The notes beneath the pieces are model-generated. The model was not told the origin of the DNA. It saw only the letters and a program-made list of their open reading frames with translations, and did no database searches. From Gemmatimonadota bacterium (GTDB lineage: Bacteria > Latescibacterota > UBA2968 > UBA8231): DNA of 64,000 bases. Shown one piece after another: positions 44,482 through 64,000 of this stretch. The stretch's first letter is position 1; each line of letters opens with the position of its first letter. Location of the stretch: the NCBI GenBank assembly GCA_038153405.1, contig JAYOYH010000004.1, positions 32,001 through 96,000 on the forward strand, given 5' to 3'. The position numbers and the translations under genes are program-made.

Positions 44482-44740
44482 GCATGTCCTCCTGATGCGG
44501 CTGCCGTGCGACGGCAGCGCGTTCGACTTGTGGTCCCGCGCGGCGTCGCTGCCGTGCGGTAGACTTTCCGTTACCGGTAAACGCGACCCGTCCTCGCCCT
44601 CAATATAGTGGTCGAGCGCATCGACTACCACCTGCATAGAGGCCCGTGTTGACACCCGTCGGGCGAACGCTACTTTACCCATAGGCCGCTAGCCAGCCTC
44701 TCCCGCCGGCCGCTGCACCCCTTGGGCCCGAGTTTGCCAC

Positions 44741-45310
44741 ATGTCACTTCGCTATCTGATCGCCGCCGCACTGCTGCTTGCCGCAGCCGGACTGGTGCTA
44801 TTCCACGACGGCGCCAACGCCTTTGATTTGGACGGCCGCCCATTCGACCCACTTGCTACCCGCGCGGCAGCCACCGCCCTGATTTTTGTCGGCCCCGATT
44901 GCCCGATTTCCAACCGCTACGCACCTGAAATCCAGCGCTTATCTGCCCGCTATGAACGCGACGGAGTGCTGTTTTTTCTGGTCTATCCCGATCCACAATT
45001 GAGCAGCGCCTCCATTCGCCAACACCTGGCGCAGTTTGCCTATGAGCTACCCGCCCTGCGCGATCCGCAGCACGCCCTCGTCGACTTAGCCGAAGCCGGC
45101 GCAACCCCACAGGCCGCAGTCTTTGACGGCGCGGGCGCGCTGGTCTACAGCGGCCGCATAGACGATCGCTATATAGACTTTGGCAAGCAGCGTCCCACCG
45201 CGCGCACGCACGACCTGGATGAAGCGCTGCAGGCTACTCTCGCCGGCAGGCGACCTGCCACCGCGCGCACACCGGCCGTGGGTTGCTATATCGCCGACCT
45301 GAAAGAGTGA
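44741..45310 (+). CDS. Exported thioredoxin-fold redoxin (AhpC/TSA-like)
   Basis: Signal/anchor segment, PDCPISNRYAP, ATPQAAV, YSGRIDD, AVGCYI. Confidence 0.85.
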   Translation: MSLRYLIAAALLLAAAGLVLFHDGANAFDLDGRPFDPLATRAAATALIFVGPDCPISNRYAPEIQRLSARYERDGVLFFLVYPDPQLSSASIRQHLAQFAYELPALRDPQHALVDLAEAGATPQAAVFDGAGALVYSGRIDDRYIDFGKQRPTARTHDLDEALQATLAGRRPATARTPAVGCYIADLKE

Positions 45311-47010: not shown

Positions 47011-47017
47011 CGATGGA

Positions 47018-47701
47018 TCACCATTTCATATTCATCGCCAGGCGCGGATAGTCCGTCACATTGCGGCTGCCCGAGTGGGCGCAGAACACGTGATAGAACA
47101 GCACGTCGCCCCGCCGGGGCACGACCTCCACGCATTCGCCGATATCCGCTTTGTTCAGCTCGCCGCCTAGCACCCACATTGGGCGATAGTAGTCGGGCTG
47201 GCTGCGCGCCAGCGCTGCAATCTTGCGGTGCGAACCAGGCCATACCACCGTGCCTCCGCCCTGCGGCTTGACGTCGTGTAGGAACGTCATCGACGCCACG
47301 CGAAAGGCGTGTGGAAAGGTCTCGTGCCCGTGTTCCTTGATCGAGTGGTCGATGTGCGGTCCGTGCGGCGCCCAGGGCTCTTGCGTTGGAAAGATATTAA
47401 TCGCATAGCCGCTCTTGGGCGCGCGAAACTGGCCGCGGTCCAGCGCGCCTTCGCTCAGCTGCCAAGCTGCCGTGAGCAGCTGCTCGGTATACACGGCCGT
47501 CAGCTCGGCATCTTCGTAGCCGGTGTGGCCGCTCGCGCGCTCCTTCCACGAAGCCGGATCGCTGCGATCCAGTCCCATGCAGCGCCACATCGCCGCCTCG
47601 GCGCGCTCCGCTACGTCGGTGGGGATTAAGCCCGATACGAGCAGGTAGCCGTTTTCGATATACGCTGCCACCTGCTGCTGCGTCAGCACGGGTTCCGTCA
47701 T
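47018..47701 (-). CDS. PhyH-like dioxygenase
   Basis: YIENGYLLV, PHIDH, FLHDV, GGTVVWPGSH, GDVLF, AHSGSRN. Confidence 0.88.
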   Translation of the reverse strand: MTEPVLTQQQVAAYIENGYLLVSGLIPTDVAERAEAAMWRCMGLDRSDPASWKERASGHTGYEDAELTAVYTEQLLTAAWQLSEGALDRGQFRAPKSGYAINIFPTQEPWAPHGPHIDHSIKEHGHETFPHAFRVASMTFLHDVKPQGGGTVVWPGSHRKIAALARSQPDYYRPMWVLGGELNKADIGECVEVVPRRGDVLFYHVFCAHSGSRNVTDYPRLAMNMKW

Positions 47702-47725
47702 GGCACACTCCTCCTGTATGGCGTC

Positions 47726-49882
47726 CTAGCCAAGTATGAAAATAATATTGCGCGTCTGTCCGGTGATGTAGTCGATGACGATCCACAGCCCGTTGCACAG
47801 CGCTTCACCCGCTATCAGGCCGAGAAAAAAGCGCTGACTGCGCAGATAAAACGCCGGGCCGCCGTAGCGCATAACCATGCGCTTTAGCGCCCAGGCGATA
47901 AAGATGCTAAACCAAATTTTATTCATCAGGTGGTTGGCCGCCACGGCAAAACCAAGCGGATGCAGCGGCCACCACAATAGGTGCTGGCGCGCCCAGGTCA
48001 GCAGCAGCATTACGACCCCGCCAAACGCGAAGAATCCCAATTCCCCCCAGGCAATACCGGCTGGTTCCAGATTGCGCACGGCCGTATCGTAGACCACAGC
48101 GGGACCGCCCTTAAAAAACCAGCCGACTAAATTGATACCGCCGTGCTGATAGGCCATATGGAGCACCATCCAGCACGAACCAAAAGCGCCAATGCACACG
48201 GCCAAATAGGCGCCGTAGAGCACCAGACGTCGGCTGCGGCGATCCATATCTTCAATGAGCTTGAGTCCATTGGCCATCAGCGCGAGAATAAAAATGCGGA
48301 TGTCGGCCGCCCATATATAAGCCAGCGACATGTTGAGCACGCCCCCCGACCCCACTAGCGTCGAGCCCAGACCCTGCACCACTAAGTCGGGTGCGATCAT
48401 CGGCGAGCGCACCGCAGCAAGTCCCGCCTCAGCTACCACGCGACTGATACCGATAAAAATGAGCAGCGCCAAGACGACAAAGAGCAGCGCGACCCACAGC
48501 TTAGTGCCCATCAGCCACAGCCAGCCGACGACGATGGCGCTGCCGCCGACCAAGCCGCACAGCGCACCGCGGTAGGAGGCGACCTCGTCGCTATCGTCTA
48601 CATCGGCTGCTCCGGTCAGCGCCTTGCGCAGCACATCTTTGAGATGCTGGCGGCCCACCCACAGGCCCATCAGCACCATGGCGATGAGTGCACCACCGGC
48701 CTGGTAGGCCAGATAGGGCTGCTCGGCAATGCCGTATACAAAATTCTGCGTCGAGCGCAGACCGGCCAGCGCCAGCGCTTCCGATTCGGCTTTGGCCAGC
48801 AGGTGAAAAAACCACAGGCCGGCGGAGATATGCGTGTTGATCAAATAGGAAAAACCGATAATCGAAAACACTACGCGCAGCTGCAGCGTCTGTGTGCCGA
48901 TATACGAGGCAGCCCATGACAGATTCAGCACCGGATAGGCTGGATCGTAGTTGTGCAAGCCCTTTAACGCGCCAAAAAACAGCGGAATGGCCGCACCATA
49001 CCACATCGCTCGACTTTTGAAGAAGGCGTTGACCAACCCTTTTTCATCTTCGCCGCGCACCATCGCCAACCCCACCTGCGTCAGCGGGTAGGCCAGCCGC
49101 TCGCGCTCCACCCACTGGCGACGCAGGATCACCGCCGCTGAAATCATCGCTACATAGAGCGCCATCAGCAGCAGCCCCCACCACAACAGCGGCTCCACCC
49201 ACGCCTCCCACGGCACCGCAGCCTGCGCGCCCATACCCTCGTAGAACGTTTGATTATCGGTGCCGTCGTCGACCAATATCGAATGCCGCGGCAGCAGCGG
49301 CCCCAGCTTTTCTGCCCACTTATTTTCCGGCGTAGCATAGTAGGCCAGCGACGATATGATGGGCAGCAGCTGCTGGCTCATGCCCATCGTGCACAGGGCC
49401 GAAACCACCAACAGCATGATATAGACCAGCACTAGGTCGGCGCGATTGAGCGCCAGCGTCGAGCCGCGCACGGTAAGCGGCACGTTGGCGACGGCCGAAG
49501 CGATGAGAAAGGCGATCAGCCACAGACCTGGCTTAAGCCAATCAACCTCCTGTCCCGCGTAATAGCCGGCGGACAGGATCAGGGCGAAGGCCGCCAAGCC
49601 GAGGGCCATAGGCACCGAACGAGAGGCCACCTTAAACAGCGCATTGAGCAGGCCGATCAACACGATAAAGAGGAATATGGCACCCGGCGTATTGAAGTCC
49701 CACGCCATAAAGGTGGCGTGCATCGCCGTATTGGCATAGGGCGCGCCAATGGCCAAGAAAAAACTGAGAAACGCGCCGGTCCAAAAGCCGCGCCAGCTTA
49801 TGGAAGCCCCTTGACCAAAGACCAAACCATCGCTGCGCTCGTCGAGGTGCAGGGCGTATTCTTCAGGTATCTCTCTATTCAA
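47726..49882 (-). CDS. DUF6785-type polytopic membrane protein (putative transporter)
   Basis: DFNTPGAIFLF, YYATPENKW, LRRQWVERERLAYP, SRVVAEAG, WWPLHPLGF, MRYGG. Confidence 0.85.
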   Translation of the reverse strand: MNREIPEEYALHLDERSDGLVFGQGASISWRGFWTGAFLSFFLAIGAPYANTAMHATFMAWDFNTPGAIFLFIVLIGLLNALFKVASRSVPMALGLAAFALILSAGYYAGQEVDWLKPGLWLIAFLIASAVANVPLTVRGSTLALNRADLVLVYIMLLVVSALCTMGMSQQLLPIISSLAYYATPENKWAEKLGPLLPRHSILVDDGTDNQTFYEGMGAQAAVPWEAWVEPLLWWGLLLMALYVAMISAAVILRRQWVERERLAYPLTQVGLAMVRGEDEKGLVNAFFKSRAMWYGAAIPLFFGALKGLHNYDPAYPVLNLSWAASYIGTQTLQLRVVFSIIGFSYLINTHISAGLWFFHLLAKAESEALALAGLRSTQNFVYGIAEQPYLAYQAGGALIAMVLMGLWVGRQHLKDVLRKALTGAADVDDSDEVASYRGALCGLVGGSAIVVGWLWLMGTKLWVALLFVVLALLIFIGISRVVAEAGLAAVRSPMIAPDLVVQGLGSTLVGSGGVLNMSLAYIWAADIRIFILALMANGLKLIEDMDRRSRRLVLYGAYLAVCIGAFGSCWMVLHMAYQHGGINLVGWFFKGGPAVVYDTAVRNLEPAGIAWGELGFFAFGGVVMLLLTWARQHLLWWPLHPLGFAVAANHLMNKIWFSIFIAWALKRMVMRYGGPAFYLRSQRFFLGLIAGEALCNGLWIVIDYITGQTRNIIFILG

Positions 49883-49975
49883 CTGTTTCTCCGCTCCGCA
49901 GCCATCACACCATGCCCTTACCCTCAGTAAACAAGCGGTCGACGACCAACCGATCTCCTCCCTGTCGTAGCGTAA

Positions 49976-51082
49976 CTAGTGGGCAACCGAGCCATCGACC
50001 TGAAAGTGGCCCGTAATCGGCACCCGCTTCTGCGCATAGTCGGCGACCAAGCCCTCATCGATCTCAACGCCAATGCCCGGCCGATCGGAGACAATGCGGT
50101 AGCCGTTCTCTATCCGCATCGGCTCGTCGACGACGACCGCACCCGCCGCATTGCTCTCCATGAGCACGTAGTTGGGTATGGCCGCGGCAAAGTGGGTAAA
50201 GGCGGCGTTGTTGACGGCACTGCCCATCAGATGGGGAAAGATGCCGACAAAGGCCGACTCGGCAATGGCGGCGATCTTCTTTATTTGCGTAAAACCGCCG
50301 GCCAGCGAGACGTCCGGCCGGATCAGACTGACCAGCTTGCGGTCGATCAGATCCTTAAACTGCTGGATGCTGTAAAAGCGCTCGCCCGTGGCCACCGGCA
50401 AACGCACGCTGCGCGCCATAATTTCCAAGCCCTCGACGCTCTCGGGCGCCAGCGGATCTTCGTAGTAGAGCATGCGGTAAGGCTCCAATTCGCGCGCCAG
50501 CACGATCGCCTCCTCTATGCGTAAATTGCGGTGGATTTCCAGCCCCAAATCAATGCCGTAGCCAATGCCCTCGCGCACGCCAGCCACCATGGCTACCGCT
50601 TCGTCGATGACCTGACTAGCCGGCTTTTGCTCGAAACCGCTGTAAAATGGCGTCATCCGCAGCGAGGTATAACCGTTGGCGACGTGGCTGCGCGCACTGT
50701 CCACGCGCGCGGGCAGCGTTTCGCCGACGATATTTTCAAACACCTTCACTTTGTCGCGACACTTGCCGCCGAGCAACTGGTAGACGGGCAGTCCAACCGA
50801 CTTGCCGAGAAGATCCCACAGGGCGATATCGATAGCGCTCAGTGCGGCACTCAGCACCGCGCCGGCAAAGTGGGTCTGACGCGAAACGACCTGAAAGTGG
50901 TGTTCAATGCGGCGCGCATCTTGGCCGACATAGTACTCGGACAGTTCGTCGATGGCCGCCTTAACGACGCCGTGATGAGCCCACAGACCCGCCTCGCCGT
51001 TGCCGATAATACCGGCATCCGTATAAACGCGTACTAGCAGGTAGCGGTCGACCAGAAAGCTGCGAATTTCCGTTATCTTCAT
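49976..51082 (-). CDS. Enolase-superfamily dehydratase (galactonate dehydratase-like)
   Basis: MKITEI, ALSAIDIALWDLLGK, YQLLGG, YYEDP, ATGER, IRPD, FPH. Confidence 0.9.
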   Translation of the reverse strand: MKITEIRSFLVDRYLLVRVYTDAGIIGNGEAGLWAHHGVVKAAIDELSEYYVGQDARRIEHHFQVVSRQTHFAGAVLSAALSAIDIALWDLLGKSVGLPVYQLLGGKCRDKVKVFENIVGETLPARVDSARSHVANGYTSLRMTPFYSGFEQKPASQVIDEAVAMVAGVREGIGYGIDLGLEIHRNLRIEEAIVLARELEPYRMLYYEDPLAPESVEGLEIMARSVRLPVATGERFYSIQQFKDLIDRKLVSLIRPDVSLAGGFTQIKKIAAIAESAFVGIFPHLMGSAVNNAAFTHFAAAIPNYVLMESNAAGAVVVDEPMRIENGYRIVSDRPGIGVEIDEGLVADYAQKRVPITGHFQVDGSVAH

Positions 51083-51104
51083 GTGTTTTCTCCTGGCTAA
51101 GACC

Positions 51105-51854
51105 TTAGTATAGCCCCAACAGCCCCTCTGCACCCGGCACACCCCGCTTTTCGAACGCCTCGCTAAGCCAGCGCGCACGCGAAGGCAGGCCCGGATTGCG
51201 ATAGGCATAGACCACCGCCCAGCGCGTGTCGCTGCCGGCCCTGCGCGGGCTGACGGCGTGGGCAGCGTGCGTCCACATCAGCACGACCGATCCTTCGGGG
51301 GCTGCCAGTTCTTCGATCTCAAGTGGTCGACCGGTGGCCGGATGCACCTTGTCTATGATCCAAGCGGTGCGCAGTTCCTCGTCGGACTCGGCGCGAATGC
51401 CCTCGTCTCTGTAGAGGTGGCTGCCGCGCACGACCTTGAGCGCACCGTCTCCCAGCACAAAACCGTTGACGTAAAAAAAAATGCGCACAAAGCCAAGATC
51501 TGGACGCGCCGCGCCGTATTCGTGGCTGTGCCAGTGCGCTCCCCCATTGCCGCCCGGGCGATTGAGCGATACGCAGTGGTCATAGCGAATGTCTCGACCC
51601 AATACCCAACGAGCCAATTCGACCAACTGCGGATGGCCGATCAAGCTGGCTAAATAGGCGTTGTACTCGGCGGCGTAGTGGTTGGGCCGATAGGCTTCGT
51701 CACCCGGCATAAGCGACTGAATGTGGCTCAGCGCCTCGACCAGTCGCTGTCGCGTTGGAGCCGTCAATAATTCGGGCAGGACCACGTGGCCGTCTCGGTC
51801 TAGCTCGGCCCGTTGGCTATCTGTCCAAATATCGTCGGCAAAGATCGCTTCCAT
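51105..51854 (-). CDS. PhyH-like dioxygenase with an atypical HxH metal motif
   Basis: LDRDGHVVL, HWHSHEY, FFYVNG, GALKVVRGSH, GSVVL, AAHAV, RWAVVYAY. Confidence 0.8.
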   Translation of the reverse strand: MEAIFADDIWTDSQRAELDRDGHVVLPELLTAPTRQRLVEALSHIQSLMPGDEAYRPNHYAAEYNAYLASLIGHPQLVELARWVLGRDIRYDHCVSLNRPGGNGGAHWHSHEYGAARPDLGFVRIFFYVNGFVLGDGALKVVRGSHLYRDEGIRAESDEELRTAWIIDKVHPATGRPLEIEELAAPEGSVVLMWTHAAHAVSPRRAGSDTRWAVVYAYRNPGLPSRARWLSEAFEKRGVPGAEGLLGLY

Positions 51855-52172
51855 AGTCTACTCGTCGAAGTAATTTAGTGCTGCATTTTCAGCCGCCCAC
51901 AGTTCGTAAGACATCGCACCGATCGCGTGCCGCGGCAGCGGCGAGGCCGTTGAGCGCTCGTCTCGGGCGAAACACACCGCATGGCACCGCTTTGCCTACC
52001 CCCAGATTAGACGGTGGGCGTGCGTCGAGCAAGCCGATGGGCCGTCGGCATAATCTGACAGATTTCAGCGACTGAATCAAATCAGCGCAACGACCTGACC
52101 TCGTCTATTTTTACTCTATCGCGCAGTAGACAGCACTGCGCTATTTTCGTATGCTGAACGGAGGAGGATACC

Positions 52173-52955
52173 ATGCTTCTAACCGCGGAACAACTGCGCT
52201 TTTTTAAGCAAAACGGCTACCTCATCGTGCGCGGCGTGCTCGACCCAGAAGCAATGGCCAGAGCGCGGGCGCGCCTGTGGGAATACGCGCCACCGGGGCG
52301 CTCACCCGACAAGCCGGAAAGCTGGATTGGTCCCTTTCTGCCAGAAGAAGAAGACGTGGAAAAGCCCAACCACCGGCGCGGCTTTCGCTGGCAGTACCGC
52401 GAGCCTGGAGGCGAGGACTGGATGGTCAACCTCTTGGCCAAAAATCCAGATATATGGAAAATGGCCGAGCAGATGTTGGGCGCGGGCGAACTGTCCGAAC
52501 CGCAGCGCATTCGCGGCATCTACTGCACTCTGCCCTACGGACAGACGCCGCTGCCTCCGCTGCAATGCCACTGCGACGCGCACCCATTTCACCTCGGCGT
52601 AGTCGGCTATATTGACGACGTGCCGCCCAACGGCGGCGGCTTTGCCGTCTGGCCGGGCAGCCATGCCCCCTTCTATCGCGCCTATACATCGCAGTACCGC
52701 AACGAACCAACGGAAGAGTACGACGCCATTCGCCAGCACTACAACAGATTGGAACCGGTAGACTGCCATGGCCGGGCAGGCGACATCGTGTTCTGGCATC
52801 ATCGCCTAGGCCATATGGCCGCACCCAACGCCTCGGAACAAATTCGCCAAGCCGTGCTCTACGACTACGTGAAGAGGGATATCGAAATAACGCAGGAAGA
52901 GGGTCCGCAGGCCGATATGTGGCGCGATTGGTCGGAGGCCATGCGCACCGCCTGA
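52173..52955 (+). CDS. PhyH-like dioxygenase
   Basis: FFKQNGYLIV, CHCDA, YIDDV, GGFAVWPGSH, AGDIVFWH, GHMAAPN; GGAGGAGG RBS. Confidence 0.88.
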   Translation: MLLTAEQLRFFKQNGYLIVRGVLDPEAMARARARLWEYAPPGRSPDKPESWIGPFLPEEEDVEKPNHRRGFRWQYREPGGEDWMVNLLAKNPDIWKMAEQMLGAGELSEPQRIRGIYCTLPYGQTPLPPLQCHCDAHPFHLGVVGYIDDVPPNGGGFAVWPGSHAPFYRAYTSQYRNEPTEEYDAIRQHYNRLEPVDCHGRAGDIVFWHHRLGHMAAPNASEQIRQAVLYDYVKRDIEITQEEGPQADMWRDWSEAMRTA

Positions 52956-52997
52956 GAGACACTGCCCAACGTTTCCAACGAATAGTCGATTAAATCT

Positions 52998-53201
52998 ATG
53001 AGCGAAGACATTCAGCGTCGCACCTGCAGGGCCTGCGGCCAGTCCTACGACTACCCCGGCCACCAGAGCATGGCCACGCGCACCTACTGCGAGACCTGCG
53101 TGGAACTGCCCGAAGCGGCGCGGCGCAACTTCGAGCGCATGCGCCGTCGACTCGATCGCCTAGAAAAAGCGGTGGAAGCGCTCAAGGACCAGCGCACCTA
53201 G
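52998..53201 (+). CDS. Small Zn-ribbon/coiled-coil protein
   Basis: CRAC...CETC followed by a heptad-like RRLDRLEKAVEAL; its stop overlaps the next start. Confidence 0.7.
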   Translation: MSEDIQRRTCRACGQSYDYPGHQSMATRTYCETCVELPEAARRNFERMRRRLDRLEKAVEALKDQRT

Positions 53202-53764
53202 TGGCGGATAACGAATCCAATCGCCGCGCCTTTTTTCGCGAATTTTTTAAGCGCGTCGTCGATCCGGTAGCCGCCTACGCCGAGCATCGCCTGCCGCAGG
53301 AACACACGCTTTTACGGCCGCCCGGCGCCCTGCCCGAACGCACATTTTTAGACACCTGCTATCGCTGCGGCAACTGCGCCGACAGCTGTCCGGTAGAGGC
53401 TATACAGCACAGTCAGAGCGATGACGAGGCGCTGCGCGGTACACCGGTTATCGATCCGGACGCACAGCCGTGCATCGCCTGCGAGGGCCTGCACTGCATG
53501 GCCGCCTGCCCCAGCGGAGCCCTCGTGCCCACACCGCTCGCTCAGATAGCGATGGGCCTAGCGCGCGTAGACGAACAGGCCTGCCATCGCAGTCGTGGAG
53601 AGGACTGTCGCCTGTGTGTCGACGCCTGCCCAACCCCCGAAAAAGCGCTCTCGGTGACTGGAACGGACCCGGTTGTCGTCCACGCTGCGCACTGCATTGG
53701 CTGCGGCCTGTGTCAGCACGTATGCCCAACGACGCCCAAGGCCGTTGTCGTTCGACCTACTTAA
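53201..53764 (+). CDS. NapF/NapG(MauM)-like 4x[4Fe-4S] ferredoxin
   Basis: NRRAFF, LRPPGA, CYRCGNCADSCP, CIAC, CMAACP, CRLCVDACP, CIGCGLCQHVCP. Confidence 0.9.
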   Translation: MADNESNRRAFFREFFKRVVDPVAAYAEHRLPQEHTLLRPPGALPERTFLDTCYRCGNCADSCPVEAIQHSQSDDEALRGTPVIDPDAQPCIACEGLHCMAACPSGALVPTPLAQIAMGLARVDEQACHRSRGEDCRLCVDACPTPEKALSVTGTDPVVVHAAHCIGCGLCQHVCPTTPKAVVVRPT

Positions 53765-53837
53765 AGAGCGCAACGGAGCAAAACCGCACAGAGCGCTCCG
53801 CAGGAAATACCAATTAATCGGCGCAGTGCAAAACGAG

Positions 53838-53871
53838 AAAAAGGCCCGGTAGGTATCCCCGGACCTTTTTT
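53838..53871 (-). terminator. Intrinsic terminator, possibly bidirectional
   Basis: Minus strand AAAAAGGUCCGG-9 nt-CCGGGCCUUUUU with A/T runs on both sides, between convergent genes. Confidence 0.7.
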
Positions 53872-53895
53872 ATCGTTCTGGGCAGGCCGCTCCTG

Positions 53896-55068
53896 CTACG
53901 CCAGCTTTTGCACCGCCTCATGCATCAGTTGACCAATCGGCAGGTTGTGCGGACAGGCCGCCTCCGCCGCGCTAAAGTCAACCCCTTCTATGCGCTTGGC
54001 CTCAGCCGGCAGTTGGGCAAAGAGTTGGCGACCGCGGCGGCGCTCACCGTAGTTCTCATAGTACATGCGGTAGCGCAGCGTCTCGGCGATTTGCAGCGGA
54101 GCGGCCAGCGCCACCTCGCACCGTTCGCTGCAGCCGCGGCAGTACAGATGATCGGTCTCGGCCGCGTATTCGCGCAGCATTTGGCGCTCATCAAAACCCA
54201 TAGCAGGACTGCGCGCCGCCGCCGCATTTTCCTTGACCTGTTTGATATTCTTCATCGCCGATACGGCGCCGGCGATGCGCTCGTCGGCCCATACGGCCTT
54301 AAGGGCAGCTTGGTGCGGATTAAAGCCCTTGGCCTTGAACTTGTCGACACTGTCGGCAAACGAGACAGCGCCGCCCTGCGTCTTCATCGCAATCAGCCCA
54401 ATATTGGCTTTGTGCATTTTGTCGATGGCTTTGTTGAGGGCTGCGTCGTCGTAATCGCGGAAATTGTACTTGAACATGACCGCATCGACGAAGCCCACCT
54501 CGGCGGCTTTTTCCAAAGTGGCTACCATATTGCCGTGGTGCGATGAAAAACCGAAAAAGCGAATCTTGCCCGATTTTTTGAGGTTTTCAGCCGTCTTCAT
54601 CATCTCTGCATCAAGGCGATCGGGATTGCCCAAGTTGTGCAGGAAGTAGAGGTCGACGACGTCCATACGCAAGCTCTCAAGCGAACCGTCGAGATTAGCG
54701 ACAAACGACTCCGGATCGTGGTCCGTGCTCTTTGTGACGATAAAGCACTCTGAGCGTCGCCCACTTTTCTCGAGGATGTTGCCCACCATTTTTTCGCTCT
54801 TGCCGCCGACATAGCTCTGCGCCGTATCAATGTAATTGATGCCTTCAGTCAGCGCGGCATTGAGCAGGGGGGGCGTTACGGGCAGCGCCGTACCCATGGT
54901 CAGAATGGGGATCTCGACCCCGGTCTTCCCTAGTATGCGCGTGGGCATCGACTTGTCTTCTGCTGCTTCGGCTCGACCAACGGCCGAGGCCAGCACGGCT
55001 CCTGCTCCTATGGCACCGCTCGCGGCGATAAACTCGCGCCGCGTCAGCTTCTTGTCCTTATTGCGCAT
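53896..55068 (-). CDS. Tat-signal aldo/keto reductase with C-terminal Cys cluster
   Basis: TRREFI signal ending AEA, INYIDTAQSY, IVTK, YFLH, IAMKT, CRGCSERC...ACP. Confidence 0.9.
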   Translation of the reverse strand: MRNKDKKLTRREFIAASGAIGAGAVLASAVGRAEAAEDKSMPTRILGKTGVEIPILTMGTALPVTPPLLNAALTEGINYIDTAQSYVGGKSEKMVGNILEKSGRRSECFIVTKSTDHDPESFVANLDGSLESLRMDVVDLYFLHNLGNPDRLDAEMMKTAENLKKSGKIRFFGFSSHHGNMVATLEKAAEVGFVDAVMFKYNFRDYDDAALNKAIDKMHKANIGLIAMKTQGGAVSFADSVDKFKAKGFNPHQAALKAVWADERIAGAVSAMKNIKQVKENAAAARSPAMGFDERQMLREYAAETDHLYCRGCSERCEVALAAPLQIAETLRYRMYYENYGERRRGRQLFAQLPAEAKRIEGVDFSAAEAACPHNLPIGQLMHEAVQKLA

Positions 55069-55082
55069 GCTCTTTCTCCCCG

Positions 55083-56708
55083 TTAAGCGTTTTCGCTCAA
55101 ATCGATATGCAACAGTCCACTGCGGTCCTTCTGCCCGCCGCTGCAGCCGCACCCGCCTCCAGTATCGCTCCCCCCACCGCAGCAACCCTCTTGTCCACCG
55201 GCCATGCCCAGCAGCAGCGAACGCTCTTTCGAACGCGTTTCCCCGACCGCCGTAACGCGAATCGCTCGGTGATCCTGCACCGGACACTCGTGCTCACAGA
55301 TACCGCAGCCAATGCACACTTCCGGATCGACGTAGGGACGCGTCAGCACCACCTTTTCGCCCCAGCGGTTGGTAATTTCTACTTCGCGCGAGTAAATCGC
55401 TTTGGGCGAGGTCGGACACACCTCTTCGCACACGACGCAGGGCGTGTCCATCGCCCACGGCAGGCAGCGCCCGCGATCGTAGAAAGCCGTGCCCGTCTTT
55501 ACCGGCCCCATATCGGTGAACTGGCCAATGCCCAATTTCTGTTCGATAGAAATTTTCTGGATGGCCCCGGTCGGACAGACTTCGCCGCACAGCGTGCAGT
55601 TCAGTTCGCAATAGCCCGTGCGCATATTCATAATCGGCGTCCAGATGCCTTCTAGCCCACCTTCTAACATAGCCGGCTGCAGCACGTTGCTCGGACATAC
55701 GCGAATGCACTGATCGCACTTGATACAGCGCTCTAAAAACTCGTGTTCGGCCACCGAGCCGGGCGGGCGCACGACCTCTTTCTTAAAGAGCTCGTCGACG
55801 TCGCCGCTGCGCCGCGAAAAGGGAAAGCTCAGCGCGCCGATCAGGCCGGCCATCACCGCGCGACGGCCGCTGATCTGCGGTCCCGTCACTTCGCCCTTTA
55901 TATCGGGCATAAAGTCGAAGGAAAGCGCATCGTGTGGACAGTCGTCGATGCAGTTAAAGCATACAAAGCACTCCGACTTGCGCAGGTTCGTATGCGGATC
56001 GGATGCCCCCTCGCAGCGCTGCAGGCACAGATCGCAGTCGACGCATTTGACCGTATCGCGGTGGATGCGCCACAGCGAAAAGCGCGACAGCAGGCCCAGC
56101 GTTGCACCGAGCGGGCAGAGAACGCGGCAGAAAAAGCGCGGTATGACCAGGTTCATGCCGATGAGAAAGAACAGCAGAAAGCCGACGACCCAACCCAGCT
56201 GGTGGACGTGCGGACGCACGTAAAACCACTCGGTCGGCATGTCCAACGCCGGCAGCACCGCTACAGTAAACGAGCGAAAGAGCAGGCAAATGGGATCGAG
56301 CAAGCCGATCTGCAGCGAGCCAAACAGTGCGGCCGCTCCCATGCCGATCAAGATGTAGTACTTGAGGGCAAAGAGCTTTCGGTATCGATTGCTCTCGATG
56401 TTTTCGGTAATCGTGCGGCGATTAAAGAGCCAGCCCGTAAACTGGTGCAGAATCCCGTACGGGCAGATCCAATTACAGAAAAAGCGTCCGAGAAAGAGCG
56501 TCGGTATGAGCAGGACCAGCGACCAGACGAGCCCCTGATACAGCGTGTGCGTAGTCATGGCCGTCGCAATGGCCACCAGGGGATTTACTTCGAGGAAAAT
56601 CGATACCGGATAGCCTTTTAAGTAGCTGAACTGCGTCACAAAGCAGAAAAAGAGAAACAGCCCCATAAAGAAAATCTGAGTGATCAGGCGAACGATTGTT
56701 ATGCGCAT
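55083..56708 (-). CDS. Membrane polyferredoxin (NapH/MauN-like domain fused to NapG/MauM-like domain)
   Basis: [37 protein letters not shown], then VRPPGS and four further cluster motifs. Confidence 0.92.
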
Positions 56709-56717
56709 AATAGGCTC

Positions 56718-57698
56718 CTATCCGACCTGTATTTCGCGCCAGTTGAGGCGCCGCCAATCCGTCGTGCCCAATCCGCGCTGTGCCGCCTTGTGCAAGTAGG
56801 GCAAATTGGCCGCATCGCGCCCCAGCAGCGAATAGCCATACGTATCGACGGCGACCATATCGGTGCCGACGACCAGCGTATCGCCAACGGCCACGTCGCT
56901 CAGGCTGCCGCCGGTCGGCCCGTTGCGCATCAGCACGCGCGTCGCGTCGAGTAGGACCAGCGTCGGCTTGACCATATGTGGAAAATCGGAGACAATGCCG
57001 TGGATGGCCTGGTGAAACTGGTTGCGGCGACCGCCCAGCATGCCGTACCAGTTCTTCATGGTCATGGAGCCGGAGCACAGGTTGTGGTCCTTACACGGGG
57101 CAATGCCAATCACTTTATCCACCGCGGCAAAGGGTTTGTAAAACGTCGTCCACGTGCCCAATACTTCGCCGTCGATTTTAACCTCTGCAAAAGACGAGTT
57201 CCTGGGTAGCATAAGCTCGGCGCCAACCTCATCGGCAGCGGCCTTGATACCCGACTTGAAAAAGCATCCTTCGGGCTGATTAATCGGATTGTCGGCTACG
57301 ATGATTTTTCGGGCACCGGCTTCGCGGCACAGGACGGCGACGGCCTTGAGCACGCCGGGACTCGTCGTCGCGCCGAGCAGCGGCGCGCGATCAAAGGCGA
57401 CATTGGGTTTGAGCAGCACCGCATCGCCCTTGTTAACAAAGCGCTCAATGCCGCCCATTTCCCCTATCGCAGCGCGCACCATGGCCTCGGCGTCGGTGCC
57501 GTGGGCAATGGCCATGGCCACGGCGTTGGCACCGCGGTCCACGGCAAAAGAAGGCAGCACCTTAGCGGCGGCAATCTGCGCATCGCGAAAGTACTGCCCA
57601 CCGCCGCGCGGATCGTAGAGTAGCCCAGCGCCCAGAGTCGAGCCGGCAACGGCCAGTCCCGTCAGTCCGGCTCGGCGTAGAAAATCGCGTCGTTCCAT
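56718..57698 (-). CDS. DUF362 protein with Tat signal
   Basis: ERRDFL, VLLKPNVAF, ATTSP, CKDH, TMKNWYG, NGPTGG, DMVAVD. Confidence 0.88.
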   Translation of the reverse strand: MERRDFLRRAGLTGLAVAGSTLGAGLLYDPRGGGQYFRDAQIAAAKVLPSFAVDRGANAVAMAIAHGTDAEAMVRAAIGEMGGIERFVNKGDAVLLKPNVAFDRAPLLGATTSPGVLKAVAVLCREAGARKIIVADNPINQPEGCFFKSGIKAAADEVGAELMLPRNSSFAEVKIDGEVLGTWTTFYKPFAAVDKVIGIAPCKDHNLCSGSMTMKNWYGMLGGRRNQFHQAIHGIVSDFPHMVKPTLVLLDATRVLMRNGPTGGSLSDVAVGDTLVVGTDMVAVDTYGYSLLGRDAANLPYLHKAAQRGLGTTDWRRLNWREIQVG

Positions 57699-57789
57699 GG
57701 TTTCGTGCCGTTCCTCAATCGGTGAATGCACGCCGTCGGTCACCCAACGGACCGTCGGCGAATAAACGCATATTCAGCAACTGGTCAAT

Positions 57790-58860
57790 CTACTTACCCA
57801 GTTGCGCGATAGCGCGCAGCAAGTCGTCGGCACCGCGCTCGGCCACCGCGCGCCCTTCGGCCAGATTGACCCCCGCAAACAGGGTGCCATGCTGAAAGAT
57901 CACATCGTAAAACCCGCCGAAGTCTCCGGTAAAAACCTGCGTTCCACCTACCGTGCGCGGCGCGCTCACTTCGCCGTAGTCGCGCAGATAGGCCAGGTAT
58001 TGTTCCATCGTCGCGGCGGCGGCCTCAGGCGTTTCGTGCAGCGACACAAAAGACGTCCACTCGTCGGCCGCGCTGCGATACTTGGCCGTATAGGTTTCTT
58101 TGAGAAAGTCGAGACTCAGCGCATCGCGCTTAAAGTACTGGACGAAGAGCCTATTTTCGCGCGGAAAATGTTCCAGTCCCCACACGCTGCCTTCGCTATC
58201 TGGCAGCCGTGCGACGAGTGTGCGCGCGATCGCTTCGCTGGCCGCGCGCATCGCTTCGCCCATATCGGAAGCGATGATCTGCGCGTAATAGGTGCCCTTC
58301 CAAAAGAAATAGCTGCTCTCGGCGCGATAGCCCTGATCGCCCAGCGCCTGCAGCTCGGCTTCTTCCGGTCGTTCGACGGCGTAGATGCCAAAGGCGTTGT
58401 CCAACGCATCCATATCGTAGACGAATACGTCGATAAACTGGCCATCGCCGCCGGCTAGCCCAACAAAGTCCATGCCCGCTACATCGTAAGCCAGGTATTG
58501 TTCAGCGCGGCCGTTGATTTTTTCATAGAGCGTCTCGGCCGTAAACGACTCGACGGCACCCAGATCGCGCCAACCTTCGGGCGCCAAGCCGCGCAGCGGC
58601 GCAGATTCCACTGCCCCTGCCGCACCGGCAACGCGCCCTTCACCGCTCTCTTCAACCAGCTTGACCTGCTGTCGAACCGGAGCCTCCTGAGACAAAAGGT
58701 TTTGATCTAGCGCAAAGAGATTGGGATCGAAGTGCTGCCCCTTGATATAGGTACCGACGCCGAGGCCGGCGATCAACAGCAGCATCAGGGCGCCGATGCC
58801 CGTCTCCATGCCCGAGATTTCCGTGCGCTCAAAAGCGCGTTTACCAACGCCGCCAAACAT
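57790..58860 (-). CDS. DUF6599-type membrane-anchored protein
   Basis: N-terminal TM, TLYEKINGRAEQYLAY, VFVYDM, NAFGIY, FFWKGTYYAQI. Confidence 0.7.
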   Translation of the reverse strand: MFGGVGKRAFERTEISGMETGIGALMLLLIAGLGVGTYIKGQHFDPNLFALDQNLLSQEAPVRQQVKLVEESGEGRVAGAAGAVESAPLRGLAPEGWRDLGAVESFTAETLYEKINGRAEQYLAYDVAGMDFVGLAGGDGQFIDVFVYDMDALDNAFGIYAVERPEEAELQALGDQGYRAESSYFFWKGTYYAQIIASDMGEAMRAASEAIARTLVARLPDSEGSVWGLEHFPRENRLFVQYFKRDALSLDFLKETYTAKYRSAADEWTSFVSLHETPEAAAATMEQYLAYLRDYGEVSAPRTVGGTQVFTGDFGGFYDVIFQHGTLFAGVNLAEGRAVAERGADDLLRAIAQLGK

Positions 58861-58900
58861 AGAATCTGCCTTCCGTTCTAAAGTTGCTTTCCGCGCTTCG

Positions 58901-59785
58901 TCAGCGGATCAGCCTGCGCGGCCGCTCGATCAGGTTGCGCAGATAGTCGCAGTAGGCGTTGCCCTTGGCCATACCGGCAATTGCCAACAGCTGATCCGCT
59001 CCGATGTAGTTCTTCATATAGGCAATTTCTTCAATACAGCCCACCTTCAAGCCCTGTCGATGCTCAATCGTCTGCACGAAGTTGCTCGCTTCCAACAGAC
59101 TTTCGTGCGTGCCCGTATCCAGCCAGGCAAAACCGCGCCCCAGCACTTCGACGCCCAGTTCGCCGCGCGACAGATAGACTTTGTTCAAGTCGGTGATCTC
59201 TAGCTCGCCGCGCGCCGACGGCTTTAAACTACGCGCGATATCCACGGCCTCCCCGTCATAAAAATAGAGGCCGATCACCGCGTAATTAGAGCGCGGGTTC
59301 TGCGGTTTTTCCTCAATGCCGACCGCTCGCTTATCGGCGTCGAACTCGACGACGCCGTAGCGTTCGGGATCCTGGACGTAATAGGCAAAGACCATGCCGC
59401 CTTCTTCGATCTGGCCGGCGCGCTGCAGCATATTCGACAGGCCGTGGCCGTAGAGAAAGTTGTCGCCGAGAATTAGTGCGCTCGGCTCGTCTCCAACGAA
59501 ATCGGCACCGATTGTATAGGACTGAGCCAGCCCTTCGGGACGCGGCTGTACCGCGTATTGAATATCTAAACCGAGGCGCGAGCCATCGCCGAGCAATTGC
59601 CGGTACAGATCGATGTGCTCGGGCGAAGAGATAACGAGCACTTCGCGGATATCGGCCAGCATGAGGACCGATAGGGGATAGTAGATCATCGGCTTGTCAA
59701 AAACGGGCAGAATCTGCTTTGACAGCGATACGGTCAGTGGATAGAGCCGCGTTCCCTGCCCTCCCGCCAGTATAATTCCTCTCAT
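58901..59785 (-). CDS. rfbA: Glucose-1-phosphate thymidylyltransferase
   Basis: [47 protein letters not shown]. Confidence 0.96.
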
Positions 59786-59918
59786 ATGACGTCCCTTAGC
59801 TAGTCTCCGATAAGTCCATTCGATGCACACGACGCCCGTAGACATACCGATAAGGCGTCGTACATTCTATGCTAATATGGGATATAACTCAATTGGCGAC
59901 CACCCCAAAAGGAGTGCA

Positions 59919-60443
59919 ATGAAGATCGTTCTAGTCGGCTACCGAGCGGCCGGAAAATCGACGCTGGGAAAACGTATTTCAGATAAATTGGCCATGCCGT
60001 ACCTCGATATCGACCGCGGCATTGAGGAACGCATAGGCGAGCAAACGCTGACGGATTTTTATGGAAAAGTGGGCGAAGATGGATTCCGCCCCATAGAAAC
60101 AGAAGTCGTGGTCGAAATGTGCCGCACCGAACGCGCCGTTATTGCCTTTGGCGCAGGCTCTCTGATGCGCGCGCGCAACCAGCAAGCAGCTAAAGACAAC
60201 GCCCTAGTTGTCTACCTCCAGGTGCCGGTCGACGAGCTGTGGCGACGTATCTGCTCCGATCCCAACAGCGGCCACACCCGCCCCAACTTGGCCGGCGGCG
60301 GCCTGCAAGAAGTGGAATATATGCTCGCCCTGCGCGAGCCCACCTATGTGGCCTGCGCCAACCTCGTACTCGATGGAACGCGAGCAACTGAGGAACTGCT
60401 GCAACGCGTAGTGGAGTCGTATCGGGCCGCAGGCGGCGCGTAG
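59919..60443 (+). CDS. aroK: Shikimate kinase
   Basis: GYRAAGKSTLG, DIDRGIE, GEDGFR, VVYL, TRPNL, REPTY. Confidence 0.88.
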   Translation: MKIVLVGYRAAGKSTLGKRISDKLAMPYLDIDRGIEERIGEQTLTDFYGKVGEDGFRPIETEVVVEMCRTERAVIAFGAGSLMRARNQQAAKDNALVVYLQVPVDELWRRICSDPNSGHTRPNLAGGGLQEVEYMLALREPTYVACANLVLDGTRATEELLQRVVESYRAAGGA

Positions 60444-60462
60444 AGCACGGCTGCCGATTGGC

Positions 60463-61350
60463 TTATCCCGCATAGCCAACAGAAGCTACGCCGCGGCTCT
60501 GCGGATCAATTTTGACCAACGATCCAGCCAGTGGCTGCTCTGCCAGCGCCTTTTCGTCCAGCTGTTGGACGGCTGAGGTAACGTACAATTCGTCCATATC
60601 TTCGCCGCCAAAAGCACAGGACGTGACGTTGGCAAAGGGCATGGCATACTCGGCCATCAATTTCCCGCTGCGCGGATCGTAGCGCTTGACCGACCAGCCG
60701 CCATACACGGCAATCCACAGCGTGCCGTCCGCGTCGATGGCCATGCCGTCAAAAATGCCCGCGCCTTCGTTTTCGCATACGACGCGCTCGTTGTCGATGG
60801 CCCCCGTTTCCACGTCGTAGTCATAGGCCCGCACGTTGTTGAGCGGCGAGTCGATGTAGTACATGGTGCGGCCATCGGCAGACCAGACGATTCCATTGGA
60901 AACCGACACAGGCGCCAGGCGCCTGTGCACGCTGTGGTCGACGTCCAGACAGTAGAGCGCTCCGGCATCTTTGGCACCTTTGAATTCCATGGTACCAGCC
61001 CACAGCCGACCAACGGGATCGCACTTACCATCGTTGAAGCGATTGGCCGGCACGCCGCGCTCTGGATCGTCGCCAATCGGCGTCAGCTTTCCGCTATCTA
61101 TATCGATATGGGCAAAGCCGTTATGCAAGGCCACCACCAGCCCTCCGCTCTGCCGTGGAACCACGGTACCGACCGCCTGACAGGTATTCAACGTGCGGTT
61201 GATACCGTTGACCGGATCGTATACATAGACTTCGCAACCGAGAATATCAACCCAGTAGAGCACCTTCTTTTTGCTGTCCCACAGGGCGCCCTCTCCGACC
61301 AGAGTGCGATTCTCCACAACCAATTGAACGTCAACACGCTCTACGGCCAT
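60463..61350 (-). CDS. SMP-30/gluconolactonase/LRE family protein
   Basis: GEGALWD, LYWVDI, RFNDGKCDP, SNGIVWS, DGMAIDADG, TSCAFGG. Confidence 0.93.
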   Translation of the reverse strand: MAVERVDVQLVVENRTLVGEGALWDSKKKVLYWVDILGCEVYVYDPVNGINRTLNTCQAVGTVVPRQSGGLVVALHNGFAHIDIDSGKLTPIGDDPERGVPANRFNDGKCDPVGRLWAGTMEFKGAKDAGALYCLDVDHSVHRRLAPVSVSNGIVWSADGRTMYYIDSPLNNVRAYDYDVETGAIDNERVVCENEGAGIFDGMAIDADGTLWIAVYGGWSVKRYDPRSGKLMAEYAMPFANVTSCAFGGEDMDELYVTSAVQQLDEKALAEQPLAGSLVKIDPQSRGVASVGYAG

Positions 61351-61386
61351 CGCGCTATCCTCTGCATTTTTTGCGCTATTATCACG

Positions 61387-63999
61387 CTAGTGTATCAACC
61401 TGTCCATTTCGGCCAGCAGCGCCGCGGAGCTAAACGGCTTCATAACCAGAGCATCTACAGTCGCCCCTGATGCGATCGCCGGACTCTTTCCATCGGACAT
61501 TTTCAACCCCAAGATAGGCAGGTGGATATCGTGGTGGCTTACCGCCTCTCGCAGCGCAGACACCCACTGCTCTCCCTTGGATTCACTCATATCCATATCG
61601 ACCAACGCGATATCAAAACCATTCGCACCGTCTTCTATCAAGCTGCTTTCACTGGCGCCCAAGACAACGGCCCAACCGGCTTTCTCCAGCATGCCTCCCA
61701 CCAGCAATTGCTGGAATGAATCGTCTGAAAAAAGCAGGGCGCGTCTACCCGACTGTTCTATCTTCTCTCCTGCTCCAGCGGCGACCGCACGAGTATCGCG
61801 ATCTAATCGAATGCTGAAACTAAACGTGCTGCCCTTTCCTACTTCGCTTTGCACATTCATACTACCACCCATCATTTTCACCAATTCAGCACAAATGCTC
61901 AGCCCTAGGCCCGTGCCGCCGAATCGGCGAGTCGTCGAAGAATCCTCTTGTACAAAGGCGTCAAAAATGGTTTGCAGTTTGTCTTCCGCAATGCCGATGC
62001 CCGTGTCCCGAACCGATACATCAACTGCGATGTGATCGCCGTCGAGGCGACTGCCGATGACCAATTCAACCCAACCAACTTCCGTGAATTTGGCAGCGTT
62101 TCCGAGCAGGTTTATCATGATTTGGCGCAGGCGCACGGGGTCGCCGAGTACATTGGCTTCAGAAACGGCCCTTTTATTGTAACGGAGTTCGACTTTGCCG
62201 CTTGTAAAGCGATTCGACATCAGCTTTACGGTGGAGTCGAACTCTAGGAGCAAGTCAAAACTTGTTTGCTCTAAACTGAGCTTACCCGCCTCAATTTTAG
62301 ATAAATCGAGAATATCATTGAGAATATTCAACAGCTGCTTGCCCGCCATTTGCACGATGTCGAGGGACTCGCGTTGATCAATGCTCAACGATGAGTCGAG
62401 CACCAGCTCCGTCATCCCAAGGATGGCATTCATCGGCGTGCGTATTTCGTGGCTCATATTAGCCAAAAATTCGCTCTTAGCTAGGTTGGCTTCATCGGCG
62501 ACTGCGCGCGCCCTTTGTGCCTCTATTAGCGCTTTCTCCATGTTATTTTCGGCACGATCGCGCCTGGACAGGTCCATCAAGCGCAAGCTGGCCACGGAAA
62601 TCTGACTGCACATCTCTACCATAGTCGCTATCAATGATGTATTACAGCCCAACTCGGAGATCAAACCTACGGCCAGTGATCCCTGCACAAAAGGCACGTC
62701 TATAACCAGCGTGGGGCGGTATTTTTCGCCCAGCCCACCATACTTTTCAGCCTCTATATAGCGCTCCCATACTTCGTTGCGCTTCCAGTGCTTAATTAGC
62801 AGGGGGATTTCGCCCGCTTGTATAGAAACTTCTTTGGTTACGACCTGTCCATTCATGTAGTTATACGACGTTACGCGCTCGGTTTTCTCATCAATCAGGT
62901 TGACACCCCAAGCTTGAAAATCGACACCTATCTGGGCGTATCCATCGCCTATTGCACTAACTACGGATTCGAAGTCTTCAACGCGTTGCATTTGCAGGAT
63001 GGCGTTCTGAATGCGTAGCTTGACCGATTGTACGGTCTCCGCAAGATTATGCAGCATATTCTTTCGAAAGCGGAGCAAATCGAATGTGTTCACCCACTCC
63101 CCTACCTCAGCACCGTTCTCGATTGATAAGTCGCCCACTTGGCTCGGATACAAACTCACCGAACCTTCTCCATACAGGGGAACTTCTAATAAGCAGCATA
63201 CATCTTCTATACCCGCTGTGCGCAGACGCTCTCTCTCGACTAAAACCAGATTCCCAGAGCTCCACGCTTCGCTAATCCAAGGTCGATCGGCCAGCCGATT
63301 GGCATCGTACTCAACTAAGAAATTTTTCGCCACATCTCTTATATCGACGTAATAACCGTCGCGCGTAGCGGGAAAATGCACTTCTATCTTGGCAATACGC
63401 CAACCGAGTCTCTGCATCGCACCGACGAACTCTATATCAATTATTCGCTGTTTTTCGACGTAATCGACCGCATCGAGCATGAGTTTTCTAAGGCGGTTCT
63501 GCTCGCGTTGGGTTTGCAGCGCGCGCGACGTCAGTTTTTGCGCATCAATTAACTCCTGCTGAACCACCAACAGCTCGATATTGTGCATCTCCCGCTCGAC
63601 GAATTTGGCCAACTGGGCGAGGGTTAGGTTATCCTCATCGCTAAACGACCGCGGCTCTGTGTCTATAATGCATAGGGTTCCGACGAGTTGCCCATCGGGG
63701 GCCGCTAGCGGCCGTCCTGCGTAGAAGCGAATATGCGGTTCTCCAACCACCAGTGGATTGTCGGCAAATCGGCTATCTTCTAGCGCATTTTCCACGATAA
63801 ATGTGGAAGGCTGATGAATAGCATGTCCGCAGAAAGAAACATCGCGCGAGGTCGATTTGGCATCCAATCCGTAGCATGCCTTAAACCACTGTCGATCGCT
63901 ATCGACTAGACTGACCAGTGCGATGGGTACGCGAAAGATAGACCCTGCCAATCGAACGATGCTGTCAAAGCGATCTTCCGGTTCCGTATCGAGCAGTTC
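61387..63999 (-). CDS. GAF-containing hybrid histidine kinase; 5' end lies outside the window
   Basis: Frame is open to the window edge ([12 protein letters not shown]); GAF (SFCGHAI, IRFYAG), [33 protein letters not shown], degenerate REC. Confidence 0.93.
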
Positions 64000-64000
64000 C

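Follow-up and report, generated by a model that had tools for sequence, protein, structure and literature searches.

An exported DUF362-polyferredoxin module, with an optional aldo/keto reductase, as a candidate periplasmic nickel-pincer dehydrogenase

The window analysed here, a 64,000-nt stretch of contig JAYOYH010000004.1 (positions 32,001-96,000), contains an operon for a DUF6599 protein, a DUF362 protein, a polyferredoxin (PFD) and an aldo/keto reductase (AKR). We propose, with a probability of about one half, that these genes specify a periplasmic nickel-pincer dehydrogenase, in which the pincer cofactor sits on DUF362, and on the AKR where one is present, and electrons pass through the iron-sulfur clusters of a NapH-NapG protein to quinone. 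The parts of this proposal differ in strength: it appears quite probable that at least one of the two heads binds a nickel-pincer, and a net exchange of electrons between the heads and the polyferredoxin appears fairly likely. The module would be the first predicted nickel-pincer enzyme outside the cytoplasm. Its features, in window positions used throughout, are as follows; Tat denotes twin-arginine translocation.

57790-58860, minus strand: DUF6599 protein, 356 amino acids (PF20244 at E = 6e-43, hydropathy, invariant columns)
56718-57698, minus strand: DUF362 protein, 326 amino acids, with a twin-arginine signal (PF04015, TIGR01409)
57012-57086, minus strand: DUF362 His205-x9-Lys215-Asn...His229 motif, invariant in alignments of 99 and 57 rows
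55083-56708, minus strand: polytopic polyferredoxin, 541 amino acids, a NapH-NapG fusion (profile matches, 28 conserved Cys)
55860-55865, minus strand: internal twin-arginine pair R282-R283 of the polyferredoxin, before the fifth hydrophobic segment, with basic residues after it
53896-55068, minus strand: AKR, 390 amino acids, with a Tat signal and AEA cleavage motif, a catalytic tetrad and a Cys4 tail
54382-54540, minus strand: AKR His177 to Lys229 stretch (profile alignment to PDB 9YEB)
53953-54141, minus strand: AKR C-terminal Cys310/313/317/372 tail (alignment; one 4Fe-4S cluster predicted)

The four open reading frames (ORFs) follow one another in the order DUF6599, DUF362, polyferredoxin and AKR, with gaps of 91, 9 and 14 bp. 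A first-pass annotation of this DNA had described four co-oriented genes with these gaps and had read them as an undescribed exported redox module lacking a molybdoenzyme, hydrogenase or amine dehydrogenase catalytic subunit. That view is supported by a literature search and by a conservation survey of the kind the annotation had suggested. A genome scan with DUF362 yielded 80 loci, in genomes titled Gemmatimonadota/Latescibacterota, Planctomycetota, Armatimonadota, deltaproteobacteria and Gammaproteobacteria, and the module is kept across Latescibacterota-like, Planctomycetota and Proteobacteria genomes. DUF6599 lies upstream of DUF362 in 62 of the 65 loci with room for it, and a polyferredoxin lies beside DUF362 in 67 of 74. 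Among the 42 loci long enough to show an AKR, 29 have one (a few carry two or three) and 13 have none beside the core; three of these 13 genomes hold such an AKR elsewhere, and the other ten, which are incomplete, hold none. The core is therefore DUF6599-DUF362-polyferredoxin, with DUF362 as the constant partner and the AKR as an optional one. The annotation had also proposed the AKR and/or DUF362 as a new catalytic head that would oxidise sugars or aldehydes and feed respiration; no known catalytic head was found in the module, and the AKR proves not to be essential. When all ORFs of the 80 loci were clustered and the 22 largest shared clusters inspected, no molybdoenzyme, hydrogenase or amine dehydrogenase was found among them, and no napA or mauAB catalytic genes were found there or in window positions 44000-64000. 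Outside the module genes and their shadow frames, no cluster extended to more than 14 loci. We found no account of this gene combination in the literature, although the list of larC-near families in the supplement to the paper on NphT, an AKR considered below, may name DUF362; in 10 of the 12 supplementary text files, some of them truncated, no DUF362, PF04015, PF12801 or DUF6599 was found. At one locus (L010:8001-10520) DUF362 and the polyferredoxin share a single 839-residue frame, from whose junction about 20 residues are missing; with only this example, a true fusion and a deletion in the assembly are both possible.

The first line of evidence for a pincer cofactor comes from the AKR. NphT is an AKR that tethers a nickel-pincer mononucleotide (NPMN) through Lys200, with His144 on the nickel; as described in PMC13524815, its traits include a covalent adduct of +450 Da and a hydride transfer that depends on nickel, and characterised NAD(P) AKRs lack the His/Lys motif. 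We aligned a profile built from the window AKR with 108 homologues to the NphT structure, PDB 9YEB (chain numbering equal to the paper's numbering plus 3). His177, Lys229, Met228 and Ser175 fell opposite NphT His144, Lys200, Ile199 and Thr142 with the tetrad in register, and in four NAD(P)-type AKRs shown alongside both residues were missing or not aligned that far. His177 and Lys229 occur in 108 of 108 homologues, in 36 and 37 of the 37 operon AKRs, respectively, and in all 15 rows drawn from two later genome sets (some rows being the same gene twice); only 5 of the 27 AKRs in this genome have both. The tetrad Asp81/Tyr86/Lys113/His144 is complete in all 37 locus AKRs, and fold matches to AKRs (TIM barrel) reach Z 29.5. 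This pattern suggests that the AKR likely carries a nickel-pincer cofactor on Lys229 and His177. The first-pass annotation had suggested that an exported AKR could recycle a tightly bound cofactor by way of a CxxCxxxC...CP tail. The tail is indeed present (C310-x2-C313-x3-C317...C372-P373), its four Cys invariant in a 109-row alignment and found in 36, 36, 34 and 36 of the 37 locus AKRs, with Pro373 kept in only 12 of 37; it is predicted to hold one 4Fe-4S cluster. A bound rather than a free cofactor also fits, but that cofactor is probably not NAD(P)H, given the NphT-type His and Lys and the tracking with larBCE described below.

This genome encodes other AKRs of the same kind. A second Tat-signal AKR (C5:130973-131914, L192) has the His/Lys pincer motif and no Cys4 tail. 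Three more (C4:20183-21088, C31:51354-52313 and C21:34744-35637) have the His and Lys but no twin-arginine signal and are likely cytoplasmic relatives of NphT; for the first two, 9YEB is the only PDB match at E<1e-20.

The second line of evidence is the fold of DUF362. Its model, with a predicted local distance difference test score of 93, matched five LarA-family chains at Z 15.2-17.2 with root-mean-square deviations of 2.9-3.3 Å over about 207 residues, the next best match having Z 5.8; a Foldseek search, also suggested in the first-pass annotation, agreed, its top 10 matches all being LarA-like. DUF362 and LarA belong to the same Pfam clan, CL0471, in a study where DUF362 served only as an outgroup (PMC11770544). 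With LarA numbering counted on the 8EZF alignment, LarA Asp163...His174...Lys184...His200 corresponds to DUF362 Asp194...His205...Lys215...His229, and His205 and Lys215 pair exactly with LarA His174 and Lys184 in a cleaned profile-profile alignment. In LarA, His174 is catalytic, Lys184 tethers the cofactor and His200 binds the nickel. This hhalign comparison gave a probability of 94.6 (E = 7e-8; unrelated controls 0.5 and 0.2); a narrow alignment had given 0.3, and the deeper one 97.7-98.5 before one LarA row and one off-frame row were removed. Among 20 divergent DUF362 proteins, all but one retain the His205/Lys215 pair (19 of 20). A Pfam scan of the window protein matched PF04015 only, with no Lar_N, and no sequence-level match was found in the PDB; its four Cys include no invariant one, and it has no Fe-S motif. 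Keeping the tether and a likely nickel ligand, DUF362 is a candidate nickel-pincer protein.

This genome encodes four further DUF362 proteins, along with one that matches Lar_N as well as DUF362 (C46:21127, C13:36638, C41:40140, C69:4111 and C32:9451 together). The four are divergent and have no twin-arginine signal but keep the K-x-H-x9-K-N...H motif; they are possibly cytoplasmic pincer clients, and the dual-match protein is possibly an evolutionary bridge. Elsewhere, at locus L178 (G129:C1:4866000-4882000), a larC-larE-larB cluster lies about 4 kb from a divergent protein that weakly matches both the LarA and DUF362 profiles, with no module.

Synthesis of the pincer by LarB, LarC and LarE is established for these families, and the third line of evidence is the position of their genes. 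In this genome larB, larC and larE all score over their cut-offs, on three contigs other than the operon's. In nine loci (L051, L061, L172-L176, L182 and L183) lar genes adjoin the module, upstream or downstream and in at least four gene orders, among them:

larC-larE-larB-DUF6599-DUF362-PFD-AKR: loci L051, L174 and L183
AKR-DUF6599-DUF362-PFD-larC-larB-larE: loci L173 and L182
larB-larC-module: locus L061
larC-larE-larB-DUF362-PFD: locus L176

In the homologous loci L051, L061, L172-L174, L182 and L183, larC falls within 20 ORFs, the distance used in the NphT paper's search. Such adjacency in varied orders is stronger than counts of co-occurrence.

If the cofactor evidence points to two heads, the remaining genes suggest where they work. 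The N-terminal signals of DUF362 and the AKR pass the TIGR01409 cut-off at 18.4 and 17.0 bits, respectively (cut-off 16.7), and both have an RRxF motif followed by a hydrophobic stretch. The arginine pair of DUF362 is invariant in the 99-row alignment, and in the AKR R10 is present in 108 and R11 in 107 of 108 homologues; tatC was found in the genome. The two twin-arginine signals noted in the first-pass annotation are thus borne out, and both proteins are likely exported by Tat. The NapH+NapG-like fusion that it described was also recovered, with profile matches to NapH over residues 2-266 and to NapG over 309-487, although the protein scores below the NapG, NapH and MauM cut-offs. All 28 Cys are conserved in 64-65 of 65 homologues, from which seven 4Fe-4S clusters are predicted. 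A third twin-arginine motif of the module lies inside this protein, as RR in 60 of the 65 homologues and as KR or RK in three; by analogy it is predicted to mark a Sec-to-Tat handover that exports the NapG domain. The analogy is to the PFD of strain MLMS-1, which likewise fuses NapH to NapG, has five membrane segments and seven clusters, and carries its internal twin-arginine motif ahead of the fifth segment; Tat-dependent export of reporters fused there has been demonstrated (PMC5449189). The window protein has the same plan (NapH-NapG fusion, internal RR, basic residues after it, 28 Cys), and by its sequence is a member of this known dual Sec/Tat family, so its four C-terminal clusters are predicted to be periplasmic, alongside both Tat proteins. 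A complex prediction with AKR residues 40-390, DUF362 45-326 and the NapG domain 300-500 scored 0.21 against a mark of 0.32 and speaks neither way.

DUF6599, described in the first pass as membrane-anchored, does have one N-terminal hydrophobic segment as an anchor, with no Cys and no invariant His. In loci L180, L185 (by Pfam) and L188 it is fused to the C-terminus of the polyferredoxin, behind the NapG domain, which places it on the same side of the membrane and suggests partnership. It probably serves the polyferredoxin in the periplasm, as a scaffold or an accessory subunit. A profile search with DUF6599 found no solved relative, and an Atlas search with a homologue returned DUF6599 clusters only.

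Two side observations concern the polyferredoxin family. The end of the window protein (55083-55200) is a Gly/Cys-rich low-complexity tail (CC, CGC), found in about one quarter of homologues, which is a possible extra metal site. A second NapH-NapG polyferredoxin in this genome (C2:181749-183566, L193) has no DUF362, DUF6599 or AKR homologue beside it.

The points that weigh against our reading concern the lar linkage, the cofactor residues and the chemistry. As to linkage, larC is not within 20 ORFs of the operon in this genome (contigs C8 and C4, respectively), and the lar genes could be explained by the three LarA-like genes and the four other AKRs with the His and Lys that it also encodes. 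The 18 regions fetched, of which 7 show adjacency, include several picked for a close larC, and in the unselected sample lar genes are in view in only 2 of 80 loci; larE was searched in this genome and the fetched loci. Of the 80 operon genomes 50 were examined, and larC is present in 49 and larB in 48 of them, but the larC figure says little, since larC has a background of 83-95% (124 of 131 genomes in the host phylum, 167 of 201 in Planctomycetota). Within Planctomycetota, 31 of 32 DUF362 genomes have larC, as do 136 of the 169 others, a background too high to be useful. The order of genome G036 is more informative at its lower background, and it speaks for the link: larC occurs in 15 of 151 genomes, including all 12 with DUF362 and all 7 with the window AKR type. 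Fisher tests without the seed give p of about 2e-14 for DUF362 and 2e-7 for the AKR, values that the relatedness of the genomes inflates. Across the phylum of G036 (301 genomes) larC is present in 46 of 50 DUF362 genomes and in 10 of the 251 others, although the 49 non-seed DUF362 matches probably come from one class and are likewise not independent. DUF362 genomes without larC number 4 of 50 in that phylum and 2 of 31 in the host phylum, all of them incomplete genomes. Of two control species, Synechococcus elongatus has larB, larC and DUF362 with no Lar_N match, and Bacteroides thetaiotaomicron has a DUF362 protein with neither larC nor larB, so some DUF362 proteins may do without the pincer.

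As to the residues, the invariant His229 of DUF362 is one column off LarA His200, following the Lys at 14 residues instead of 16. LarA His108 has no counterpart, the aligned residue being I139 after a conserved D136-N137-P138, and the C-terminal substrate-binding domain of LarA is absent, the match ending near residue 270 of 433. With these two missing, DUF362 cannot be classed as a LarA and is unlikely to be a racemase of the two-base type. In the AKRs, Glu280 (35 of 37) and Asn281 (37 of 37) are kept at positions that contact adenine in NAD(P)-binding AKRs, and NphT is without this pair. The cofactor cavity of NphT is capped so that AMP does not fit, with contacts from Trp218 and Tyr219 (PMC13524815), and no counterpart of these two was seen in the window AKR by a two-step bridged alignment. 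It is therefore possible that the AKR holds a dinucleotide pincer, a form represented by ornithine cyclodeaminase, as cited in PMC13524815, or, less likely, NAD(P).

In the last case the AKR would hold tightly bound NAD(P), recycled through the Cys4 cluster, and the lar association would be incidental. By sequence and by fold the AKR best matches NAD(P) enzymes, L-galactose dehydrogenase among them (in fold searches of a structure library to April 2026, 9YEB was not among the matches listed), and the retained Glu280-Asn281 and the DUF362 of B. thetaiotaomicron without lar genes fit as well. There is also a precedent, since glucose-fructose oxidoreductase of Zymomonas is exported by Tat with tightly bound NAD(P). 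However, the NphT-type His and Lys are invariant, the module clusters physically and repeatedly with larBCE in varied orders, and larC co-occurrence was 12 of 12 and 7 of 7 at a 10% background. Furthermore, NAD(P)H needs a flavin to reduce 4Fe-4S clusters, and the module has no flavoprotein. We regard bound NAD(P) as improbable.

As to the chemistry, the known pincer enzymes catalyze redox-neutral reactions only, as described in PMC13524815. This would suit a pincer module without net redox turnover, comprising periplasmic epimerases, dismutases or transhydrogenases, or a DUF362 that acts as a cofactor carrier or relay, with the Fe-S wire resetting the redox state of the cofactor. DUF362, with neither the substrate-binding domain of LarA nor an Fe-S motif of its own, is consistent with such a role. 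Loss of His108, however, removes one of the two bases needed for racemization, a seven-cluster membrane wire, retained in 67 of 74 loci, would be costly if it served only for repair now and then, and DUF362 is not just a chaperone for the AKR, since 10 of the 13 (incomplete) genomes without an adjacent AKR have none. We regard this alternative as quite unlikely.

Direction is a further point, as NapGH normally carries electrons outward. The same pincer proteins could therefore run in reverse, the polyferredoxin oxidizing quinol and driving periplasmic reduction of a carbonyl compound, either as an electron sink or to detoxify the compound. Quinol dehydrogenation is the role of NapGH (PMC5449189), aldehyde reduction is known for AKRs and for NphT (PMC13524815), and the residue and linkage evidence all fits either direction. 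On general thermodynamic grounds the transfer from menaquinol or ubiquinol to a pyridinium-type carrier is uphill, although the three cytoplasm-side clusters could give electrons of lower potential. This reverse reading seems unlikely, and we retain the oxidative dehydrogenase as the preferred one.

On that preferred reading, LarB, LarE and LarC, encoded elsewhere in the genome, would make the pincer in the cytoplasm, where it would be attached to Lys229 of the AKR (His177 on nickel) and Lys215 of DUF362 (His229 on nickel), as the aligned invariant residues suggest. The folded holoproteins, loaded beforehand, would then leave via Tat; loading in the cytoplasm would explain both the Tat route and a hydride carrier in a periplasm without a free NAD(P) pool. 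There, by analogy with NphT and LarA, AKR Tyr86 or DUF362 His205 would deprotonate an aldose, aldehyde hydrate or hydroxyacid, with hydride passing to the pincer. The reduced pincer would be reoxidized by single electrons through the AKR Cys4 cluster and the four periplasmic NapG clusters, and the nickel centre could split the two-electron step into single electrons, the module having no flavoprotein. By analogy with NapGH, though with the flow reversed, the NapH half would pass electrons to quinone. Docking of the heads on the polyferredoxin would likely fall to DUF6599; of the two heads, DUF362 is the constant one and the AKR an optional addition.

Among surveyed genomes, about 15% produce the nickel-pincer cofactor yet lack larA (PMC11796402), and the known nickel enzymes number just a dozen (PMC13524815). 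The module offers two concrete candidate pincer clients, each with single residues to mutate, and DUF362 may be the missing client in genomes that have larBCE and no larA; the larB, larC and DUF362 of S. elongatus, with no Lar_N match, would fit this. If the wiring is true, pincer chemistry would extend from redox-neutral isomerization to energy metabolism, Tat substrates would gain a cofactor class, the orphan Sec/Tat polyferredoxin would gain partners, and a function would be hinted for DUF362 and DUF6599. More tentatively, DUF362 could represent a large new nickel-pincer family and the module the first exported, respiration-coupled pincer dehydrogenase, in which hydride is split without flavin.

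The operon ends near a hairpin and a convergent gene:

53838-53871, no strand: hairpin with A and U tracts on its flanks (folding energy against shuffles)
53201-53764, plus strand: convergent NapF/NapG-like 4Fe-4S ferredoxin, 187 amino acids (best matches NapG and MauM/NapG, all below cut-off)

A 66-nt stretch at the hairpin folds at -27.5 kcal/mol (z = -3.94; 0 of 200 shuffles equally stable) and, although it was not listed by a simple terminator scan, likely forms a bidirectional intrinsic terminator between the operon and the ferredoxin gene, in keeping with the terminator of the first-pass annotation. No promoter-like match was found directly upstream of the operon on the minus strand, and a search of RNA data turned up a single run, at a share of 0.07, and five short pieces, with nothing on expression or co-transcription. 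Six of the 80 loci, one of them from a Planctomycete, have a homologue of the ferredoxin downstream of the AKR and on the other strand; the ferredoxin is possibly an accessory or Fe-S maturation helper, and its membership in the module is uncertain. Farther away, the ORFs at 47018-47701, 51105-51854 and 52173-52955 look alike, and one is confirmed as phytanoyl-CoA dioxygenase-like; sulfatase-like and enolase-like ORFs lie near them, with no link to the module in other loci.

Each part of the module can be compared with a known system. The window AKR shares with NphT (PDB 9YEB) the TIM barrel, the tetrad, the nickel-ligand His, the tethering Lys and a host with larBCE; it differs in its Tat signal, Cys4 tail, Glu-Asn pair after strand 8 and membrane polyferredoxin neighbour, and NphT only dismutates (PMC13524815). 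The main text of that paper makes no mention of DUF, iron-sulfur, 4Fe, periplasm, Tat or signal peptide. DUF362 shares with the LarA family (PDB 5HUQ, 8EZF, 9EIA, 7S91 and 9Q3J) the N-terminal cofactor-binding fold and the His174/Lys184/His200 set (the last one column off), but at 10-14% identity, with no His108, no C-terminal domain and an added Tat signal; the account of DUF362 in PMC11770544 reports no activity or cofactor for it. The polyferredoxin resembles PFD Q1NSB0 of delta proteobacterium MLMS-1 in its fusion, five hydrophobic segments, internal RR and seven predicted clusters, a likeness of architecture to a protein studied for membrane assembly only (PMC5449189); in the main text of that work the terms operon, genetic context and DUF are absent, and nothing is said there of PFD partners. 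NapGH and MauMN are homologous Fe-S conduits between the quinone pool and the periplasm, from which the window protein differs in being fused into one chain, with no adjacent nitrate reductase or amine dehydrogenase. Thus each part has a known relative, and what is new is probably the combination, a NapGH-type conduit joined to what is probably an unprecedented kind of head.

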